Position numbers and translations under genes: made by a program
Part shown: positions 10,408 through 62,674 of the stretch, piece after piece
Layout of the letters: each line of letters opens with the position of its first letter
How positions within the stretch are numbered: position 1 is the first letter of the stretch
Notes under the pieces: generated by a model
Database searches by the model: none
What the model was told of the DNA's origin: nothing
The model's input: the letters and a program-made list of their open reading frames with translations, nothing else
Source of the DNA: Promethearchaeia archaeon
GTDB lineage: Archaea > Asgardarchaeota > Lokiarchaeia > Sigyniarchaeales > SOKP01
NCBI GenBank assembly: GCA_029856145.1
Contig: JAHQWK010000024.1
Coordinates: 43,131 to 107,130, forward strand
Length of the DNA stretch: 64,000 bases
Reading direction: 5' to 3'

Positions 10408-11004
10408 TTATACTACAACAAATGGAATATGTTGTTTTTTCAACATTAAGTTATTTAATTCTTTGAAAACTTCTAAAACGTTTTGATTCTCCAAAGCAGA
10501 TGTTCTAGCAAATCCATCTAATTTTCTTTTTTCTAAATATTCGGAAATCAAGGTATCATTAATAATTTCTGATTTTGAGGTTTTCTTTATTAAATCACTT
10601 TTACTCGCAACTAAAATTATTGGAATCTTTGAATCTATAGCATTCTCAATTATTATATCATACCAGAAATCTAGTTGATTAAAAGATGGAAAATTCACTG
10701 AATCGAATACTAACAAGGCTCCATTAGCACCTTCTATAAATTTGGGGATTAATGGAGCAAATCTTTCCTGCCCTCCAAAGTCAAAAATCGAATTTACAAC
10801 ATAATTTTCCTTCTGTGGATTTATTTCTTTTGTAAAATTGATTTTTAAATAGACTGAATGAAAATTTATACCAATTGTTGGAGAACTATCAAAACTAAAT
10901 GAGTTAAAACAATAACGATTAAATAATGATGTTTTACCTACTGAACTGGCACCACAAATCACAGTTTTGAAACTAAATAATATATCTTTTCGATTATAAC
11001 TCAT
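10408..11004 (-). CDS. Rab-like small GTPase
   Basis: G1 GASSVGKTS, G2 PTIG, G3 DFGGQE, G4 SKSD, G5 TSA. Confidence 0.92.
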   Translation of the reverse strand: MSYNRKDILFSFKTVICGASSVGKTSLFNRYCFNSFSFDSSPTIGINFHSVYLKINFTKEINPQKENYVVNSIFDFGGQERFAPLIPKFIEGANGALLVFDSVNFPSFNQLDFWYDIIIENAIDSKIPIILVASKSDLIKKTSKSEIINDTLISEYLEKRKLDGFARTSALENQNVLEVFKELNNLMLKKQHIPFVVV

Positions 11005-12414: not shown

Positions 12415-13491
12415 TTAAGCCTCAAGAACTTTATCCACCAGATCAATGAATTTTTTATATTTAGATATTGAACCTAAAAGGAATTCATATATTTTGTAAA
12501 TCCGGGTATAACCATTTAATTTTTCCAAAGTATTTCTATTTTCCTCAAGTTCTAGTCTTAGTTTTTGTAACTCATCATCCCATTTTGCCATTCTGTCAAT
12601 AACGGTTCTAGAGAATTTTAAAAGGATTATTCCCGCGGATTCAGCACAATACGTAATTTTACCTTTAGGTGAAATATCTGATTTCTCTATTAATCCATTT
12701 TCTAAAAGTAAGTTTACTTCTTCAGAAATCTTCCCTGCTGACAATCCGGTGATCCTTTGTAATGTTTTTTGGGTAAGCAATTTTCTTGTAATAAAGTACA
12801 CGAGAATCCTAATGAACATTGGATCTCGACTTGAAAACATGGGGGAAGTGGCAAGTTGATTTAACATATCATCCTCAACTAAATAAACTTCTGGGTCAAA
12901 AGAAATCTTCTTCACTTCTTCTTCTCTTCTAATCAAATTGAAAGATTTTGAAGATATATCTTTCAATGTTTCATTAGTTGAATTTTCTATCAATATTGGA
13001 AATATAATTTTATAAATTTCAAAAGTTTCAAGCAATTCATCAATTCTATTTGAGAGATGTTGCGCTCCTTTTTTAGATTGCTCAATAAATTTTATCAATT
13101 CTTCCTTTTTATTTTTCAAATAAGTTTCTAAAGGACCAAAAGTACTTAATGCAATTTCAATCCCTCTTGTTGTAAGATCTTCAAGCTTGCCGGTAAATGA
13201 ATATATAAATGTATGAGTGTGAGGAATACGTTCTTTTTGAAAAGTTCCAGTACCCGTCATAACTGATAAAATTGTTGATATAGAGCCCATTGAGAATCCC
13301 GTTAACTTTTTTAATTCCTTCTGGGTTAAACTTTCATGAATTAGTAAATAAGAAGAAATCATAGATATCTTTGGATTAACTCTTTTACTTTGAGCAATAT
13401 CTAATAAAAATTCTACAAGCTTATTTTCATATTTGCGAAGTTTATCACTAAAAAGATGACTAAAATTTTCTGTATCTTCTTCAACTGTCAT
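12415..13491 (-). CDS. Tandem two-domain GbsR/MarR-like wHTH transcription regulator
   Basis: Two HTH motifs: LTQKELKKLTGFSMGSISTIL and LTQKTLQRITGLSAGKISEEV. Confidence 0.85.
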   Translation of the reverse strand: MTVEEDTENFSHLFSDKLRKYENKLVEFLLDIAQSKRVNPKISMISSYLLIHESLTQKELKKLTGFSMGSISTILSVMTGTGTFQKERIPHTHTFIYSFTGKLEDLTTRGIEIALSTFGPLETYLKNKKEELIKFIEQSKKGAQHLSNRIDELLETFEIYKIIFPILIENSTNETLKDISSKSFNLIRREEEVKKISFDPEVYLVEDDMLNQLATSPMFSSRDPMFIRILVYFITRKLLTQKTLQRITGLSAGKISEEVNLLLENGLIEKSDISPKGKITYCAESAGIILLKFSRTVIDRMAKWDDELQKLRLELEENRNTLEKLNGYTRIYKIYEFLLGSISKYKKFIDLVDKVLEA

Positions 13492-13536
13492 TTCTTATTT
13501 AAATATAGGTTAAACAGGTTTATAAATGTTTTTATA

Positions 13537-13553
13537 TTTCAAACTTTATGAAA
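13537..13553. promoter_or_regulatory. Palindromic operator TTTCA-N7-TGAAA
   Basis: TTTCAAACTTTATGAAA between the divergent regulator and the Zn-finger gene; identical copy at 13988. Confidence 0.75.
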
Positions 13554-13623
13554 GGTGAAGAAAGTTAAATCTCTAATTTTTTTTAATTATCTTGATGAAG
13601 AAATTAAAAAAAAAGAAATTTTC

Positions 13624-13827
13624 ATGCCGGAAAAAGACACCAAATATAATCAAATTTTTGACATGGGGGATGTGAAATATAAGAAATGCCCCGTTTGCAA
13701 AAAGACGCGGGAGTATCCAGATGAGTTTCAGCCTGAGAGTCTATGCGTCTTTTGTACCGAGGATATCTTTACAGAGCCCGAGTTTTTTAAAATATATCTG
13801 AAAGCTATTAGAAAAGAATATGTTTAG
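13624..13827 (+). CDS. Small (67 aa) CxxC...CxxC zinc-binding protein
   Basis: CPVC...CVFC; ATG 13624 preferred; followed by a T8 run at 13851-13858. Confidence 0.7.
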   Translation: MPEKDTKYNQIFDMGDVKYKKCPVCKKTREYPDEFQPESLCVFCTEDIFTEPEFFKIYLKAIRKEYV

Positions 13828-13987
13828 CCTGTTCAGGATATGCACACTTATTTTTTTTCCAAGAACTAGCCAATAAATAATTAAGGAAAAATTAAAAGAA
13901 AATTATAGAATCTTTAGGATTAAGGTTTAATAAATAAATAGGATCCTACTATTTTTTCTACAGTTGTAATTAATAATTCTTTATAAT

Positions 13988-14133
13988 TTTCAAACTTTAT
14001 GAAACAGAAGTTTGAGCTATGATTCTGTTGCAAAATTCGTTTCACGACTTTTGAAAAATAAAAACATTTAAATATGTAGTTGATTATAATATTAATGGGT
14101 TTCATAACTTTTGAAACTTAAAAAATTATGAAA
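13988..14133. promoter_or_regulatory. Operator cluster (TTTCA-N7-TGAAA x3 plus one degenerate copy) flanking a TATA-like box
   Basis: Perfect sites at 13988-14004, 14040-14056 and 14100-14116; degenerate site at 14117-14133; TTTAAATA at 14067. Confidence 0.75.
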
Positions 14134-14150
14134 CTTCACATTCCCACCAA

Positions 14151-14873
14151 GTGTGTAAAAAAATGATTGAAATTATTTCTCAGGAAATATGGATTGGAGA
14201 TATTGATGCTAATATCAAAGAAGTAAAACCTGAACATATTTATTCAAGATGGGTTTTATTAATTGCGGGTATAAGTTATTTCATTGTATTTATTACAAGT
14301 ATATTAATAGCAATCTTTCTAGGACCTTTAGGTTATAATCCTTATTTTAATGCGATTAGCGATTTAGGGTCGTCTCATATTACTCCTGTGGCATTTCTTT
14401 TCGATAGTTCATGTTTCATCAGTCCTGGGTTTATAATTCCTTCCTTAATTATAATAGAGAAGAGGGTAGCCCCTGAATCTTTTTTTAATGGAATTAAGAA
14501 TAAGAGTGTATCATTAAAACAGAAATTTGCAGTCTTTGGAGTAGCCTTTGGACTTATTGGACTTATTGGATTGATTTTAGTAGGAGTCTTTAGTTTAGAT
14601 CGAGCAGGTCCAATGGGAATTTATCATGGGATTGCAGCAATATTAACTTTCGGAGGTTTTGTCCTTTGTATTTTCATATTTACTTTATGTTTAATTTGTT
14701 TTCGAGGCGAAATATCTAAAGTTTATGCAATAGCCACATCTTTACTTCCTATTATTATGCTATTTTTGTGGTTTTATACGAGAATCTTAATTTTTGAGTG
14801 GCTCTCTTATTTGTCAATCTTATCATACCTACTCTTTTTTCATTTTACTAATTTTAAGAGGGGAGGTTGGTAA
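14151..14873 (+). CDS. Multi-TM membrane protein, DUF998/Frag1-like
   Basis: About 6 TM segments; YNPYFNAISDLG and GIYHGIAA motifs; start may be ATG 14163. Confidence 0.7.
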   Translation: MCKKMIEIISQEIWIGDIDANIKEVKPEHIYSRWVLLIAGISYFIVFITSILIAIFLGPLGYNPYFNAISDLGSSHITPVAFLFDSSCFISPGFIIPSLIIIEKRVAPESFFNGIKNKSVSLKQKFAVFGVAFGLIGLIGLILVGVFSLDRAGPMGIYHGIAAILTFGGFVLCIFIFTLCLICFRGEISKVYAIATSLLPIIMLFLWFYTRILIFEWLSYLSILSYLLFFHFTNFKRGGW

Positions 14874-15106
14874 AATAGGGCTCTCTAACAGAAAAAATAA
14901 TTATTGACTTATAAAAAATTAGTTTTTCAAGCCTTAAGAACATTAATTAATAACCTATTTTTATTTACTTTTGATTTTAAGAAATTTCTTGAATACTAAG
15001 ACTTCCTTTTTTTTTATTACAAAAATAAATAATGTAGAGGTTTTAAGTTCTATTTTTAATTTATAAATGGAATTATTTTTTTAATTCAATTTATATAATT
15101 CGTAGA

Positions 15107-16411
15107 TTATATATCAAGGATTTCCTTCGTAATTGATAAGATTTCAACTTCATCAAACAAATTAGTCTTCCCAGTTTTTTTAAACAACTCAATTTGTTCA
15201 TGATAAAGCGTTTCAAAAAGATTAGTAAGATAATTAAGTCTTTCCTTAAAACTTGAATCTGATGGTTTAAATAGAAAACAGACTATTTCAATATATTTAC
15301 CGTAAACGGCTTGAACATAGAGACCTTTATAATTAATTTCTTCCATTTTTGAACCCCCAATTTGAGTTACAAATGAATCCATTGCTGTTAAAAAACCTGA
15401 TACTAATGCTTGTTCCTTGAAATTTTCACTGGCATAATTTATAATTGGCGTTCCACTAGTCTTTTCTATTATTATTAAATCTCTGAATATTTCCGAATAT
15501 TTTGGTTGATTAGCTTCTTTGAGCATTAATTTATTATGTTCTAAGTCATTGTAAATATCAAATAATCTAAAGTTATATGAGTCAAACGAATTTGTTTCGT
15601 TGAAATAATAATCTGATAATTTTATAACTTGTGAAGGAGCTCTCATTGGTTCTTTTGGAAGCTTTTTAATAAACTTATTTCGTATTTCAAGATCATAATT
15701 ATCGTTCTTTTTTCCTTTTCTTACACCGTAAACTATTTTCCGTGATGGATCAACTACATAAAGCCAACAATTCAAATCTTTCATGTCGTAAATTAAATTT
15801 TGTAATCCTAATTTAAGAACACCAATAGGAGTTGTTACAAAAATATTCCAACTCGCAACCTTTGCAGCTTCTTTTATTGATTCTTTTGTTTCAAGATAAG
15901 TCTTTTCATTAACATTAACACCATTCATGACGAATACAGCTGCGGTCTTTACTTTCGATTTTTTCATTGTTAAATACATGTCCATTTTAGGTGAAATTGA
16001 ATCATAGGAGGTATTATGAACTGTTGTTTCGAGATCAGCACAATGATCTGCAAAAGTTTCACTTAAATCTTGCTTTGCTATGAAATCTAAATGATATAGA
16101 TACCTCTTGAATGTTTTTGAATTAATGACTGCGTATCCACAATATTCCAAAGGGTTATCAAATCTTTTTTGCCAATCAGTTGAATTATATACATTAGTTA
16201 GGTGTGTTAAAATGAGTTTTATATATTCAAGTCTACTAACAAATGATTTTTCAGGAATAGTTATCCCATAATCCGCAATAAATTCTAACAATTCTTGAAT
16301 TTTGCAATTTATTAAAATATAATTAATAGAAAATAAACCAAATTTGCTTTTGCTTTTTTCTATAAGGTATTGAATTACATTATCCTCAGTAATTTCAGTT
16401 TCAGCGCTCAT
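15107..16411 (-). CDS. Protein with C-terminal longin/roadblock-like domain
   Basis: C-terminal LIIIEKTSGTPI...ALVSGFLTAMDSFVTQIGGSKMEEINY pattern typical of Asgard longin-like domains; N-terminal region unknown. Confidence 0.65.
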   Translation of the reverse strand: MSAETEITEDNVIQYLIEKSKSKFGLFSINYILINCKIQELLEFIADYGITIPEKSFVSRLEYIKLILTHLTNVYNSTDWQKRFDNPLEYCGYAVINSKTFKRYLYHLDFIAKQDLSETFADHCADLETTVHNTSYDSISPKMDMYLTMKKSKVKTAAVFVMNGVNVNEKTYLETKESIKEAAKVASWNIFVTTPIGVLKLGLQNLIYDMKDLNCWLYVVDPSRKIVYGVRKGKKNDNYDLEIRNKFIKKLPKEPMRAPSQVIKLSDYYFNETNSFDSYNFRLFDIYNDLEHNKLMLKEANQPKYSEIFRDLIIIEKTSGTPIINYASENFKEQALVSGFLTAMDSFVTQIGGSKMEEINYKGLYVQAVYGKYIEIVCFLFKPSDSSFKERLNYLTNLFETLYHEQIELFKKTGKTNLFDEVEILSITKEILDI

Positions 16412-16716
16412 TTTTCCACTAAACCCATCAAATTAATATCTAGTAAATTGTACAACTTTTACACCTAGGTTCTTCTATACAAATTTTATCTAATTAATAT
16501 ATACTAGAAATATATCTTTTCGTGATATCCGTATATATAATTTCATAAAATTTACTAAGGAAGAATTTGTAAAAATAATGATTTAGATTGTTCTAGCCCT
16601 ATTAAGCTTATAAAAAAAAAGAAAAATATGGAATAATTTTTAATAAATAAATGGAATTAATTTTTAAAACTTTTTTTTTATTTGAAAATATTTTAAATTC
16701 TCAATTCCCTTATAAT

Positions 16717-17229
16717 TTATTTTTCAAGAGATGCTAGTTCTTTTTCTAATACTTCAATTACTTTCATAGTTAAGGGTAGAGATGCTGTAAGTAATGTAAG
16801 GAGCTCATAAACATCAGTATAGCCGTAGAGATTTTCTATTTCATTTTTCTCTGCATTCATTTCTTTTTTTAATTCATTAAGCTCATTATAAAAATCAAAT
16901 ATTTCTTTTTGCGAATTAAAAAAATTCTTAATAATAGCTTTTTTGGGAGAATCCATTGAATAAGTAATCTCGCCTGTTCTAGATATTTTAGATTTCTCAA
17001 TAAATGCATTCTCAACTAGTTTTTTCAACTCCTGGGAAATCTTGCCTCGGGAAAATCCGGTTAGTTTATGTATCATATCTTGGGTTAGATTTTTCCTTGT
17101 AATGAAATAGGCCTTTATTGTGTAATATATGGACTTCTGAAAACCAAAAAGTGGAGCACTTAGTAGAAATTCTATTAACTCACCTTCAAAGTTCTTGATC
17201 TCATCATCAAATGGCTCATTTTCACTCAT
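16717..17229 (-). CDS. GbsR/MarR-like wHTH regulator (matches the C-half of 12415..13491)
   Basis: YFITRKNLTQDMIHKLTGFSRGKISQEL; ATGA overlap with the upstream gene. Confidence 0.85.
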   Translation of the reverse strand: MSENEPFDDEIKNFEGELIEFLLSAPLFGFQKSIYYTIKAYFITRKNLTQDMIHKLTGFSRGKISQELKKLVENAFIEKSKISRTGEITYSMDSPKKAIIKNFFNSQKEIFDFYNELNELKKEMNAEKNEIENLYGYTDVYELLTLLTASLPLTMKVIEVLEKELASLEK

Positions 17230-18011
17230 GAGTTTTCCCTCCCAAGGCCTTTTACGAATTCTGAATCAGTGATTAAACCAACTATTTTGCGGTGAAATTC
17301 TAAAAAAGAGAGAATCCCTTGAATTCTTTCTAATAAAATTTTATGGCCTTTTCTGAACTGAAAAGGCTCTAAATTTATAATCATTGATTGTAAAAACTTT
17401 TTAGTATACTCATTTGTTTCAAATTTATAGACGCTCGTACCTGAAGCAATTGCTGAAAAATCTCCTCCTAAAGAATATAAATATTTTCTAGTCCCCTTAA
17501 TCAATTCCTTTTTAAGAATTGGAGACGCTTCCATTAATTTCAAATTTTCAGAAATTGCACCCTTTGAAAGTCCTGTAAGCTCTTTCATTTGAGCCTGCGT
17601 TAAACCATTACGTTTATGTAAAAGTAGACAACCAATAATTGTGGCTAAAACATAATTTTGTCCTTTTAATTTGCCTGCCCTTACGAAGAATTTAATAACT
17701 CTTTTTTCATATTCACGGATCTTTCCCTCAAACATGTGAGATTTTCTTTCCACGTAATCCGAATAATCTTCATCAAGTCTTCGATTAATAACATTCCATA
17801 ATGATGTAAAATCTTCATTTGAGAGATCCAACTTATTAATTTTGTTTTTTAATTCGAGGATTAATTTTTCATTCCATATTGGATCAGTAAGAAAATCTTT
17901 AAGTTTTTCTTTTAGTAATTTGATATGCCCACCTTTATTATTCTCCAAATAATTCTGAGCAATTTTACCTATTATTTCCAATAAATTATTAATTTTCTTC
18001 TGATCAATCAT
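17226..18011 (-). CDS. GbsR/MarR-like wHTH regulator with N-terminal extension (matches the N-half of 12415..13491)
   Basis: LTQAQMKELTGLSKGAISENLKLM...GTRKYLY. Confidence 0.85.
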   Translation of the reverse strand: MIDQKKINNLLEIIGKIAQNYLENNKGGHIKLLKEKLKDFLTDPIWNEKLILELKNKINKLDLSNEDFTSLWNVINRRLDEDYSDYVERKSHMFEGKIREYEKRVIKFFVRAGKLKGQNYVLATIIGCLLLHKRNGLTQAQMKELTGLSKGAISENLKLMEASPILKKELIKGTRKYLYSLGGDFSAIASGTSVYKFETNEYTKKFLQSMIINLEPFQFRKGHKILLERIQGILSFLEFHRKIVGLITDSEFVKGLGRENS

Positions 18012-18099
18012 TACTGGTACAGCTAATAATATTAAACATCATTTTCTTTTAGTCTTTCCTATAAATAATATTGCTTTTCTATTATTTAAAGATTATGAA

Positions 18100-18196
18100 T
18101 TTCATAGATTGTGAAGTTCATAGGAAATGAAAATATTTAAATATGCAATTTCACTCTTAATAATTGTAAGATCTACTATTTTCATTATAAATGAAA
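18100..18196. promoter_or_regulatory. Operator cluster flanking a TATA-like box in the divergent promoter of the ABC exporter
   Basis: TTTCATAGATTGTGAAG (18100), GTTCATAGGAAATGAAA (18116) and TTTCATTATAAATGAAA (18180); TTTAAATA at 18136. Confidence 0.75.
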
Positions 18197-18213
18197 AATA
18201 AAAACAATAAAGG

Positions 18214-19179
18214 TTGATAAAAATGAATGCTATAGAGGTAAAAAATCTAATAAAATATTATGACAAAGGAAAAATTAAAGCTGTAGATGATATTTCATTT
18301 GAAGTGCCTCGAGGCTCTCGATTTGGTTATTTAGGACCAAATGGAGCTGGAAAAACTACCACGATTCGATGTATACTTGGTTTTCTCAACGCAGATGCGG
18401 GAGATATTACAATATTAGGTGAAAAGATTAATCCAAAAAAAGATGTAAAAATTCGGAATCATATTGGATATTTACCCGGCGAATTGGGACTATATAAAAA
18501 TATGACCGCAAATGATTTGATTAATTATTTTGCGAAGCTCTATGATATTGAAATAGATTGGAATTTTGTTAAAGAAGTAACAGAACGTCTTAAATTAGAT
18601 ATGAATCGAAAATTGGGCGTATTAAGCAAAGGTAATAAACAAAAAGTTGGTGTATTATCAGCTCTTATGGGAAAATTTGATGTGCTTATTATGGATGAAC
18701 CCACTTCAGGACTTGACCCATTGATGCAATTAGAATTTTATCGAATTGTATCTGAGAGACAGAAAGAATCAAAATGCACCGTATTTCTTTGTAGCCATGT
18801 GCTCGCAGAGGTAGAAAAATTCTGTGATAGAGTTGCAATCATAAAGAAAGGAAAAATTGCTGAAATATCTGATGTAAATGATCTAAAAGCAAAAAATTTG
18901 AAACATATAGAATTGATTTTTGAAACTCCAGGTAGTATGGAAGCATTTAAATCTCTTTTAGAAACTGAATATTCTGAATCAATCATAAAATATGAATTCC
19001 AGACTCAACTTGAATTTTTATTACCCCCTCATCAAGCCCGGAAAATATTATGTGAAATTAGCGAAAGAGACTGGGGTGGTGTTCCTGTAAAAGACTTCTC
19101 GATTAGACATTCCACACTAGAGAATATTTTTATGCAATATTATGAAGAGGGCAAATCAAAAGGAGGTAAAATCGCATGA
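18214..19179 (+). CDS. ABC-2 type exporter ATP-binding subunit
   Basis: Walker A GPNGAGKTT, signature LSKGNKQK, Walker B LIMDEPTSGLDP, H-loop CSH. Confidence 0.95.
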   Translation: MIKMNAIEVKNLIKYYDKGKIKAVDDISFEVPRGSRFGYLGPNGAGKTTTIRCILGFLNADAGDITILGEKINPKKDVKIRNHIGYLPGELGLYKNMTANDLINYFAKLYDIEIDWNFVKEVTERLKLDMNRKLGVLSKGNKQKVGVLSALMGKFDVLIMDEPTSGLDPLMQLEFYRIVSERQKESKCTVFLCSHVLAEVEKFCDRVAIIKKGKIAEISDVNDLKAKNLKHIELIFETPGSMEAFKSLLETEYSESIIKYEFQTQLEFLLPPHQARKILCEISERDWGGVPVKDFSIRHSTLENIFMQYYEEGKSKGGKIA

Positions 19180-19991
19180 AAGTATTGCAGATTGTATGGA
19201 AAGAATTAAAGAAGGATTACAAAAGTCTCTTAATTTTCACAGGTATTATGTCCCTTTTCTTCATGTGGTTTGTAACTTTTTTTGATCCTGAGCTATTTGC
19301 GGGTTTGGAGGAAGTTTTTGAGAGTTATCCGGAAGCAATCCGACAGATGATTGGAGAGTTTTATAATCTCGCTGAATTTGGAGGTTTTCTTAACGTTTAT
19401 TTATTTTCAATGTCGTGGTTCTACTTTGGAATATATTTTATTTTAAAGTCAGCACAGAACATCCCAAAAGAGATAGAGGATAAAACAATTGATTTGGTGT
19501 TGTCAAAGCCTATCCCACGGACGGAGTTTACTCTAGGTAAGTATCTAACCCATATAATCGAAATATTATTAATTTATTATGGTGTCATGATGAGCGTTCT
19601 TTTAGGAATATTGATATTTCCATCTGTAACTATCAATGGTATCTTTTTGAATGAAATAATTTTCGCATTTCTATATAATTTTATTTTTATGGTTACATTA
19701 ATAAGTACGGGGTTCTGTTTCTCTACTTTCTTATCTTCTAAAAAGGCATTAGCTTTAGGGTTAGGGGTGGTGATATTTTTCTACGCTGTAGGTCAATTTT
19801 GGAAATCATTTCCCGAAGTAGCACAAGAAATTAAACGTATCAGCATATTTTTCTATTCAGACATGTCAAATCTTCTCGTAAATCATGTTTGGGATAACGT
19901 CGGATTACATATTTTAGTCCTTTTAGGCTATTCTGTAGTATTAACAACATCTTCGGTTATAATATTTAATAAACGGGATATTCCCGTCTAA
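19176..19991 (+). CDS. ABC-2 type exporter permease
   Basis: Six TM segments; EIEDKTIDLVLSKPIPR...GKY motif; C-terminal FNKRDI; ATGA overlap with the ATPase gene. Confidence 0.92.
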   Translation: MKVLQIVWKELKKDYKSLLIFTGIMSLFFMWFVTFFDPELFAGLEEVFESYPEAIRQMIGEFYNLAEFGGFLNVYLFSMSWFYFGIYFILKSAQNIPKEIEDKTIDLVLSKPIPRTEFTLGKYLTHIIEILLIYYGVMMSVLLGILIFPSVTINGIFLNEIIFAFLYNFIFMVTLISTGFCFSTFLSSKKALALGLGVVIFFYAVGQFWKSFPEVAQEIKRISIFFYSDMSNLLVNHVWDNVGLHILVLLGYSVVLTTSSVIIFNKRDIPV

Positions 19992-61162: not shown

Positions 61163-62377
61163 ATGGTAATAGTACGAAGAGAAAGAGTTCTTTTAGAAGC
61201 AACTAAGAACGAGTTTGAAAATCAGGCAGTATTAAACCCTACAGTTGTTCAGCAAGGAGATACATTGCATTTGTTTTATCGCGCTGTAAAAGAAGGAAAT
61301 TATTCAAGTATTGGTTATTGTAAATTAGAAGGACCCTTGAATATTGTAGAAAGAAAAAAAAGTCCTATTTTGTTTCCTGAACATGATTATGAAATACATG
61401 GTACGGAAGATCCTAGAATCGTTTTTCTTGATGGTACTTATTATATGTTTTACACGGCTTATGATGGAAAAAATGCATTAGCAGCATACGCGACTAGTAA
61501 AGACCTTAAAGTGTGGGAAAAGCATGGAATAATTTCAGCTAAAATGAAATACGATGAAGCAGGGCATTTTTTTCATTTATCAAAACTAAAAGAAAAATAC
61601 CATTTCTTTATATCATATTATAAGGATGTCGTTGCTGAAGATGTACTCTTATGGGAAAAAGATTCATTCATTTTTCCAATAAAATTTAATAATAAGTTTG
61701 CACTGATTCATAGAATATTACCTGATATTCAAATTGTTTGTTTCGATGATTTTAAAGATTTGACAACCGATTTCTGGAAGGATTATCTAAAAACATTAGG
61801 TGAACATGTTGTAATGGAGCCAAAATTTGGATACGAATCAAGAAATATCGGTGCTGGAGCACCATTAATAGAAACTGAAAGAGGTTGGCTCATGTTATAT
61901 CATTCTGTAGAGGATTCTAATAAAGGTAAGGTGTATCACGCAAGTGTCGCCCTCCTTGATAAAAAAAATCCGTTTAAGGTAATAGGACGACTTAAAGAAC
62001 CTCTTTTTTCGCCAACCGAAGATTATGAAAAATTTGGAGATGTAAATAATGTTGTTTTCCCCACAGGCACCGCAATATTTGGAGATAGACTATATATTTA
62101 TTATGGTGCCGCTGATAAGAGAATAGCCGTAGCATCGGTAAATCTGTATAAACTTCTTCACGAACTCTTGGCGTCTGAAGTAGAAGTCGGGATTGGTTTT
62201 TTAGCAGGACAGATTTTTAATCTTACATTAAAAGAAGAACAAAGTTTAACTCACCTTAAGAATTTATTGCATCAAAACGAAAAAGTTTTACTAATGGCAA
62301 TTGGTTGGCTAACAAGGGAAAATAAAGTTCTGTGTAGATTTGATTCAGATGAATTATTCGTTAGATCTCTAAGGTAA
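61163..62377 (+). CDS. GH130-like (PH1107-type) beta-propeller glycosidase/phosphorylase fused to a C-terminal DUF2582-like wHTH
   Basis: VLNP, YRA, EDPRI, YTAYDG, NVVFPTG and YYGAAD motifs; tail IGFLAGQIF...MAIGWLTRENKV. Confidence 0.88.
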   Translation: MVIVRRERVLLEATKNEFENQAVLNPTVVQQGDTLHLFYRAVKEGNYSSIGYCKLEGPLNIVERKKSPILFPEHDYEIHGTEDPRIVFLDGTYYMFYTAYDGKNALAAYATSKDLKVWEKHGIISAKMKYDEAGHFFHLSKLKEKYHFFISYYKDVVAEDVLLWEKDSFIFPIKFNNKFALIHRILPDIQIVCFDDFKDLTTDFWKDYLKTLGEHVVMEPKFGYESRNIGAGAPLIETERGWLMLYHSVEDSNKGKVYHASVALLDKKNPFKVIGRLKEPLFSPTEDYEKFGDVNNVVFPTGTAIFGDRLYIYYGAADKRIAVASVNLYKLLHELLASEVEVGIGFLAGQIFNLTLKEEQSLTHLKNLLHQNEKVLLMAIGWLTRENKVLCRFDSDELFVRSLR

Positions 62378-62674
62378 CTATTAACAAAAAATTATTTCAA
62401 TTATCGAAGATCTTAAATTTTTTAATGTTTTTGTCTTTTCTTAAATTAATTTATCGAATTTCATATTATGGAACTGTTTTTCTGTATTATTAAAGATCAG
62501 ACGTTTAATGTCATTGTAATCAAAAAAACTGAACCTTATCCAGTAAAATTGGGGATAAATAACATCTAAAAATTTAAAAGTGGTAAGATTATAAGATAAT
62601 TACTTCATTTCTAATGAAAAATGTAAATCCCTTTTTTTTTGCTACATATATTCATTTTTTGATTGTGATTTAGA

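Follow-up and report, generated by a model that had tools for sequence, protein, structure and literature searches.

A fused regulator and its split counterpart in one locus

We analysed a stretch of 64,000 nucleotides (nt) from an Asgard archaeon (Promethearchaeia archaeon, assembly GCA_029856145.1, contig JAHQWK010000024.1, positions 43,131 to 107,130 of the forward strand), hereafter the window, in which a putative transcriptional regulator of the GbsR/MarR type is encoded both as one fused gene and as two adjacent split genes (Table 1). The fused gene is called F, the upstream split gene A and the downstream split gene B. F consists of an A-type unit, a linker and a B-type unit. An earlier note on this DNA, made by eye, had aligned the N-terminal half of F with A and the C-terminal half with B, and had remarked that the split genes keep the order of the halves and overlap by ATGA. 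All three open reading frames (ORFs) were found at the coordinates it gave, in that order and with that overlap, and BLASTP reproduced both alignments: residues 3–169 of F matched residues 79–249 of A (30% identity, 67 bits, E 3e-17), while residues 198–358 matched residues 7–167 of B without gaps (35% identity, 100 bits, E 6e-30). Cross matches were weaker, shorter and confined to the helix-turn-helix (HTH) core, with 47 bits over 85 amino acids (aa) between the N half of F and B, 29 bits over 64 aa between the C half of F and A, and 43 bits over 95 aa between A and B. Because the collinear matches were stronger than the cross matches, each half of F is specifically closer to its own collinear split gene, and not equally similar to both.

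The overlap between the stop of A and the start of B suggests that the two genes are translationally coupled. The N terminus of A includes about 78 aa without counterpart in F, and this extension was conserved in 15 A proteins, 257–293 aa long, of the lineage to which the split pair belongs (lineage IV, below). No family members beyond F, A and B were detected at E ≤ 0.01 in the 3.55-Mb genome (32 contigs, 97% complete).

Table 1 Features of the F/A/B locus, in positions of the window
Feature	Position	Strand	Basis or comment
F, fused two-unit regulator, 358 aa	12415..13491	-	ORF, BLASTP against A and B, Pfam, AlphaFold2, structural alignment, homologues
F, A-type unit, ~aa 1-170	12982..13491	-	
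F, linker, ~aa 171-197		-	
F, B-type unit, ~aa 198-358	12418..12900	-	
Operator-like palindrome TTCAAACTTTATGAA	13538..13552	.	Centre 54 nt upstream of the F start codon
Three TTCA-N7-TGAA sites, at 13989, 14041 and 14101 (spacing 52 and 60 bp)	13989..14115	.	Upstream of the membrane-protein gene at 14151
Membrane protein, 240 aa	14151..14873	+	Three operator sites upstream; local-regulon candidate
B, downstream split gene, 170 aa, B-type unit	16717..17229	-	ORF, BLASTP, B-type clade 100/100
ATGA overlap, A stop and B start	17226..17229	-	Sequence: A ends ...TCA TGA, with the ATG of B inside
A, upstream split gene, 261 aa	17226..18011	-	Extension of ~78 aa (nt 17778-18011), then A-type unit, aa 79-261
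Three TTCA-N7-TGAA sites, at 18101, 18117 and 18181	18101..18195	.	Between A and the divergent ABC transporter genes
ABC-2 transporter: ATPase 18214-19179, permease 19176-19991	18214..19991	+	Pfam ABC_tran, ABC2_membrane_2; divergent from A-B

Co-encoding and phylogeny of the two unit types

ORFs were called in more than 80 fetched loci, and only those B-type genes whose upstream side lay inside the locus were taken as assessable. An A-type gene was found directly upstream of the B-type gene and on the same strand in 37/37 assessable pairs, at distances of −23 to +26 nt, and the 4-nt ATGA overlap seen in the window recurred in 13 of 37 split pairs elsewhere. An independent profile search of the class gave the same picture, as 21/21 split N-type matches had a C-type match adjacent, and neither an orphan A nor an orphan B occurred in these 37 + 21 pairs.

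Phylogenies were inferred from single units, for which fused proteins were cut at the linker and units were labelled by position only as a guard against circularity. A tree of 140 units separated the two positions with one label change, and 69 of 70 position-1 rows fell in a set with a support of 96. A more careful tree (IQ-TREE, LG+C20, 71 rows, support as ultrafast bootstrap and SH-like approximate likelihood ratio, UFBoot/SH-aLRT) also contained 13 single-unit homologues that stand alone, with no partner gene within 1.5 kb, and come from other Asgard families. This tree recovered a B-type clade (100/100) and a single-unit clade (99/98) with no unit misplaced, such that positions 1 and 2 did not mix in the phylogeny of the half-domains. 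Without exception, the N halves of fused proteins grouped with the upstream split genes, and their C halves with the downstream ones. The clean A/B split across the trees implies that the duplication giving rise to A and B predates all paralogue lineages found. The fused or split state changed at least three times on each subtree, the order always being A then B. In a mirror-tree comparison, the distances between A units followed the distances between the corresponding B partners (r = 0.886, a value attained in 0/1000 permutations), a correlation that includes a contribution of genome kinship, weighed below.

One pair was a single substitution away from being a fused gene: at positions 1486–1491 of locus L011 (G070:C112), A and B are parted by one in-frame TAA, which is followed by a TTG start of B. 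This arrangement, together with the position of the break exactly within the linker of fused proteins, is what would be expected if the split pair were a broken fused gene, produced by a frameshift, an assembly error or the decay of a pseudogene. Against such an origin, split ORFs were intact, with their own starts and tight spacing, in more than 30 genomes and four lineages (13 with the ATGA overlap), and 114 separate B-type proteins of about 170 aa are present in public data, by which we consider the broken-gene explanation effectively refuted.

Distribution among Asgard archaea

The fused form had more than 100 homologues (353–366 aa, 54–98% identity) in Loki-type Asgard metagenome-assembled genomes (MAGs), and B had 114 homologues of about 170 aa whose taxon labels, where present, were Asgard MAGs and one marine sediment metagenome. 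Family matches were obtained in 96 of 151 genomes sampled from the class and in 77 of 201 genomes from the phylum, the 77 belonging to 22 of 58 genera. A representative library yielded 494 family clusters at E ≤ 1e-3; of the best 150 of these 494, about 95 were fused proteins of full length and about 50 were single units of the A or B type, and all named family members in the library came from Asgard MAGs.

We distinguished lineages I to VI. Lineage I is that of F and has split basal members in two places (G145 and G001/G056), lineage II contains other fused proteins of 368–388 aa, and lineages III and V consist of short split pairs. Lineage IV consists of split pairs in which A bears the N-terminal extension and includes A and B of the window, and lineage VI again contains fused proteins, including one from a MAG labelled Heimdallarchaeota. 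The split relatives of the F lineage (L053 6448–7484 on G145:C183, L026 and L027) measured 171 + 174 aa and 163 + 179 aa, and with such close split relatives of a fused gene, both states coexist within one orthologue-level lineage. The survey of fused and split forms thus found both states, in several lineages and with constant order. Two proteins, P0265 (607 aa) and P0310 (459 aa), carried 130–216 extra N-terminal residues before the two-unit core.

At the position syntenic to window 16717–19991, congeners had split pairs of lineages III, IV or V (L034–L045). These were 34–41% identical to A and B of the window, while the adjacent ABC ATPase was 73–89% identical, which indicates either very fast evolution of the split regulator pair in congeners or its replacement by paralogues. 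The A and B orthologues at hand were 65–70% identical, and their synonymous sites are probably saturated.

Family identity and fold

Only F passed the cut-off of 27 bits for Pfam MarR_2 (F 32, A 19.8, B 14.1). Weak to moderate matches to MarR_2, TrmB and DUF7343 fell on the HTH of both halves, and no NCBIfam model reached its cut-off with F, A or B, the GbsR-type CudC model scoring 26.5 bits against a cut-off of 218. A family profile built from 55 fused homologues had one convincing match in the PDB, to MJ223 of Methanocaldococcus jannaschii (1KU9, E 2.7e-10), which was carried mainly by the C half (query 238–346, chain 40–150), and homologues bore the JGI label 'GbsR (MarR family)'.

The AlphaFold2 (AF2) model of F, computed from an alignment of 55 fused homologues, had a predicted local distance difference test (pLDDT) score of 87.4 and a predicted template modelling (pTM) score of 0.83. 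It contained two copies of a helix, a winged helix-turn-helix (wHTH) and long C-terminal helices, with the order helix-helix-helix-strand-strand in each half, and a low-confidence linker at about 170–198. The pTM, the sole measure here of how the halves of F pack against each other, is too high for halves that tumble independently. An all-against-all structural search with the model (VIA-align) ranked 5JBR, 4NB5 and 1KU9 first (Z 8.5–8.7, 138–150 residues, near-whole chains aligned to model residues 15–171); 150 of the 151 residues of 1KU9_B were placed on this segment at Z 8.5 with a root-mean-square deviation (rmsd) of 3.4 Å, and many MarR and ArsR wHTH domains were matched as well. By fold, the modelled N half of F matches one complete MJ223-type subunit, and the C half matches 1KU9 by sequence.

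The premise of the earlier note that GbsR/MarR regulators are normally homodimers agrees with the literature, in which the GbsR family is homodimeric, each subunit having a reading head at the N terminus and a dimerisation domain at the C terminus, MJ223 is the family template, and an aromatic cage for choline or glycine betaine is described in the osmoprotectant subgroup (PMC6207618). The archaeal GbsR proteins of the 2018 GbsR survey were all euryarchaeal. Each half of F resembles MJ223 and the GbsR family (GbsR, OpuAR, OpcR, CydE; COG1510) in having an N-terminal wHTH head and C-terminal helical arms, and two further traits typical of that family, palindromic operators and a genetic link to an ABC transporter nearby, are seen at the locus. 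Known members, however, are homodimers of one gene product with one unit per chain, whereas here two differentiated unit types are always co-encoded and F holds two units in a single chain; and where an Opu-type importer is found in the known systems, an ABC-2 type transporter lies beside A–B.

The two-domain members of the SarA family of Staphylococcus (SarS, SarU, SarY) resemble F in having two homologous wHTH halves in one chain, but they are bacterial and appear to belong to an unrelated lineage. In SarS (1P4X), a single polypeptide reportedly imitates a dimer through two homologous wHTH halves of the MarR kind, and we know of no split A + B counterpart and no repeated fusion or fission described for the SarA-family two-domain proteins. 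As a structural template for the two-unit arrangement of F, SarS was rejected on account of poor superposition, since Foldseek matched 1P4X at E 3e-3 with a template modelling (TM) score of 0.21–0.29 and an rmsd of 19.5 Å, and the PDB search gave no sequence match. The closest precedents of F, A and B are the homodimeric GbsR/MJ223 proteins and the single-chain two-domain proteins of the SarS type. No description of the A/B regulator family was found in open-access papers and bioRxiv preprints, so that an earlier description may exist.

The best Foldseek E-values belonged to chains of RPC82/RPC62 (2e-5), with TM scores of at most 0.28 and a VIA-align Z of 7.0 for 2XUB. These top matches, together with weak Pfam matches to HTH_9 and B-block_TFIIIC and a host that is an Asgard archaeon, could be taken to mean that F, A and B are not sequence-specific regulators and serve as tandem winged-helix scaffolds akin to eukaryotic RPC82/RPC62, TFIIE or ESCRT-II modules. 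The likeness to RPC82/RPC62 lies in tandem winged-helix domains with helical extensions; those proteins have four extended winged-helix (eWH) domains and a coiled coil, in contrast to the two wHTH units of F. Their superpositions were poor (TM 0.16–0.28, rmsd 22–26 Å) and the Pfam E-values ranged from 0.1 to 0.9, while the best whole-domain matches were to MJ223 and MarR-type regulators and a conserved palindrome lies at the promoters of the family itself. We therefore consider a scaffold role highly improbable, and rejected kinship with RPC82/RPC62 and TFIIE (TM ≤ 0.28, rmsd 14–26 Å, Pfam HTH_9 E 0.92) as a generic winged-helix resemblance.

A palindrome shared by fused and split genes

The palindrome TTCA-N7-TGAA occurred 11 times in the window, compared with 4.6 sites expected, and 7 of these sites lay in intergenic DNA of the F/A/B locus. 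Genome-wide there were 199 sites, but clusters of at least three were formed only twice, both times in the F/A/B locus, where 0.02 such clusters would be expected by chance. Across 21 loci, a site was present within 200 bp upstream of 33/37 family operons, fused and split and from all lineages, and site density was 8.24 per kb upstream of family operons compared to 0.096 per kb elsewhere in the loci (86-fold). The site centre was mostly found 47–48 or 54–55 nt before the start codon, a range in which the offset at F is typical. The palindrome that the earlier note had proposed as common to the fused and split versions is real, and it is conserved across all paralogue lineages.

The extended consensus, tTTCA-N7-TGAAa, was roughly symmetric, and gene-oriented sites had no strong asymmetry, although the search core was itself symmetric and would have missed asymmetric variants. 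The layout between A and the transporter genes, two sites 16–17 bp apart with a third 53–64 bp off, recurred in related loci. Promoters with two to four sites at recurring spacings of 16–17 and 52–64 bp, and an operator core common to all paralogue lineages, would be compatible with higher-order or mixed complexes that bridge multiple sites, such as dimers of pseudo-dimers or assemblies with subunits swapped between paralogues, in which case a 1:1 pair would not be the functional unit. Promoters of the F lineage, however, often had a single site, and we think complexes of this kind quite unlikely to be what the family forms.

A single site also occurred far from the locus, at window 62604–62618, where it precedes a GT1 glycosyltransferase gene (from 62675) by 64 nt. 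This site could mark a distant regulon member or be due to chance, as about 4.6 sites are expected per window.

Proposed pairing of A and B

There is strong comparative evidence for A and B halves working as an A:B pair and not as a dimer of identical subunits. The recognition-helix signature LTQ...TG.S.G.IS was common to both unit types, while the residues conserved in a type-specific manner were YlliH versus YFiTRK together with the C-terminal helices. This pattern fits two related heads that read two like half-sites, with the differentiation residing elsewhere in the units, and the differing C-terminal helices may form the pairing surface. The logic resembles Rosetta-stone inference, by which a fused protein whose parts are separate elsewhere predicts that the parts interact, and here both states are met in one genome and across lineages. 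That approach is an inference method and no family, and it differs from the present case in that the parts are paralogues, such that the predicted heterodimer derives from a homodimer.

We also modelled the A-TAA-B read-through of locus L011 with AF2, which gave a core pLDDT of 85–97 and a pTM of 0.69, with about 110 N-terminal residues poorly modelled. A mixed alignment for modelling (A2: read-through pairs, single A or B proteins and fused proteins) was discarded as MAFFT had placed B rows on the A half, at 20–30% identity to the query, and an alignment of two-unit rows only (A3) was used in its place.

The same genes could instead be merely co-transcribed paralogues, each forming its own homodimer (A2 or B2), with F as the unrelated product of a tandem duplication. 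This would agree with the rule that MarR/GbsR proteins are homodimers (PMC6207618), with the symmetry of the operator and with the proximity of A-type units to stand-alone single-unit homologues. It accords poorly with the lack of orphans and the fixed gene order in the 37 + 21 pairs, with fusions that recur in the same A–B order in at least three lineages, with F halves that fall in the A and B clades and give no sign of recent internal duplication, and with the compact AF2 models of F and of the L011 read-through. Separate homodimers are thus, in our judgement, unlikely.

Several observations nevertheless weigh against A:B pairing. Operators upstream of A lie 97–177 nt from the start codon, outside the usual 47–55 nt, and a palindrome with symmetric halves is just as compatible with a homodimer. 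The A-type units were an unresolved grade in the careful tree (monophyletic in only 18% of bootstrap trees), and they resemble stand-alone single-unit proteins, a likeness given which A might be able to homodimerise. The signals from adjacency and from the mirror-tree are partly expected for linked genes in related genomes, with genome kinship contributing to r, and the read-through model leans on fused homologues in its alignment and is therefore not independent of the model of F.

The earlier note had proposed that two distinct subunit types pair, either as two chains or within one chain, and all computational tests that were run agree with this prediction. We consider the following explanation as a whole to be probable, and within it we infer physical A:B pairing, DNA binding, the sign of regulation and a ligand. 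F, A and B would form an Asgard-archaeal branch of the GbsR/MJ223-type MarR superfamily, in which an ancestral single subunit, with a wHTH head and a C-terminal helical dimerisation arm, duplicated once to give the unit types A and B. The working unit would be one A unit plus one B unit, encoded either as two translationally coupled genes or as an A-linker-B chain that folds as a single-chain pseudo-dimer, as F may do. With a shared recognition helix, the A:B pair would read the near-symmetric operator tTTCA-N7-TGAAa. Operators 47–55 nt before the family's own start codons would provide for autoregulation, and those of the split pair, which lie in the intergenic region shared with the divergent ABC-2 transporter, would make A:B a probable local, ligand-responsive regulator of that transporter, most likely a repressor.

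MarR/GbsR-type regulators are textbook homodimers, and a branch in which the dimer has turned into two differentiated, co-encoded halves would represent a clean natural case of the transition from a homodimer to a heterodimer or a single-chain pseudo-dimer. To our knowledge, very few regulators of Asgard archaea have been characterised so far, and the locus offers a testable pair of transcription factor and 15-bp operator in this group, with a probable ABC-2 target and a small local regulon. Fusion of A to B, as in F, might additionally insulate against mis-pairing between coexisting A/B paralogue sets that share one operator core. We put this forward tentatively and would sooner expect it to be wrong. 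If true, insulation would account for the recurrent fusion and fission and for the contrast between the conserved core copy, which is fused (F), and the rapidly evolving local copy, which has remained split. The family would then illustrate how a dimeric transcription factor can naturally escape interference between paralogues.

Neighbouring genes and likely role

Split pairs were divergent from an ABC-2 transporter in 15–16 of 20 related loci, distant ones included. ABC-2 type transporters are usually exporters. A:B is probably a local ligand-responsive regulator, most likely a repressor, of the ABC-2 transporter and of itself. In 11 loci F and a radical-SAM gene lie tail to tail and hence share no promoter, and F is most likely a conserved paralogue that regulates its own expression and recognises the operator core of A:B. 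Cross-regulation between F and A:B would be plausible.

The membrane protein encoded downstream of the three-site cluster at 13989–14115 matched no Pfam or NCBIfam model and had no homologue in 20 related loci. The true start of its gene is probably the ATG at 14163, from which the centre of the nearest site would lie at the usual offset, −55. A small cysteine-rich ORF (CxxC...CxxC) at window 13555–13827 (+) is divergent from F and had a homologue in one related locus only. The F operator abuts the annotated GTG of this ORF, and translation may in fact begin at the ATG at 13625.

Between F and the split pair lies a gene for a 434-aa protein (window 15107–16411, −) that had no Pfam or NCBIfam match and was found in the same neighbourhood, at 76–88% identity, in four related loci (L038, L039, L044 and L045). 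A Ras/Roc/Arf-like small GTPase of 198 aa, of a kind typical of Asgard genomes, is encoded at window 10408–11004 (−) and was kept beside the locus in 9–10 related loci. Elsewhere in the window, at 61163–62377 (+), we observed a GH130 (mannooligosaccharide phosphorylase-like) enzyme with a C-terminal winged-helix DUF2582 domain.

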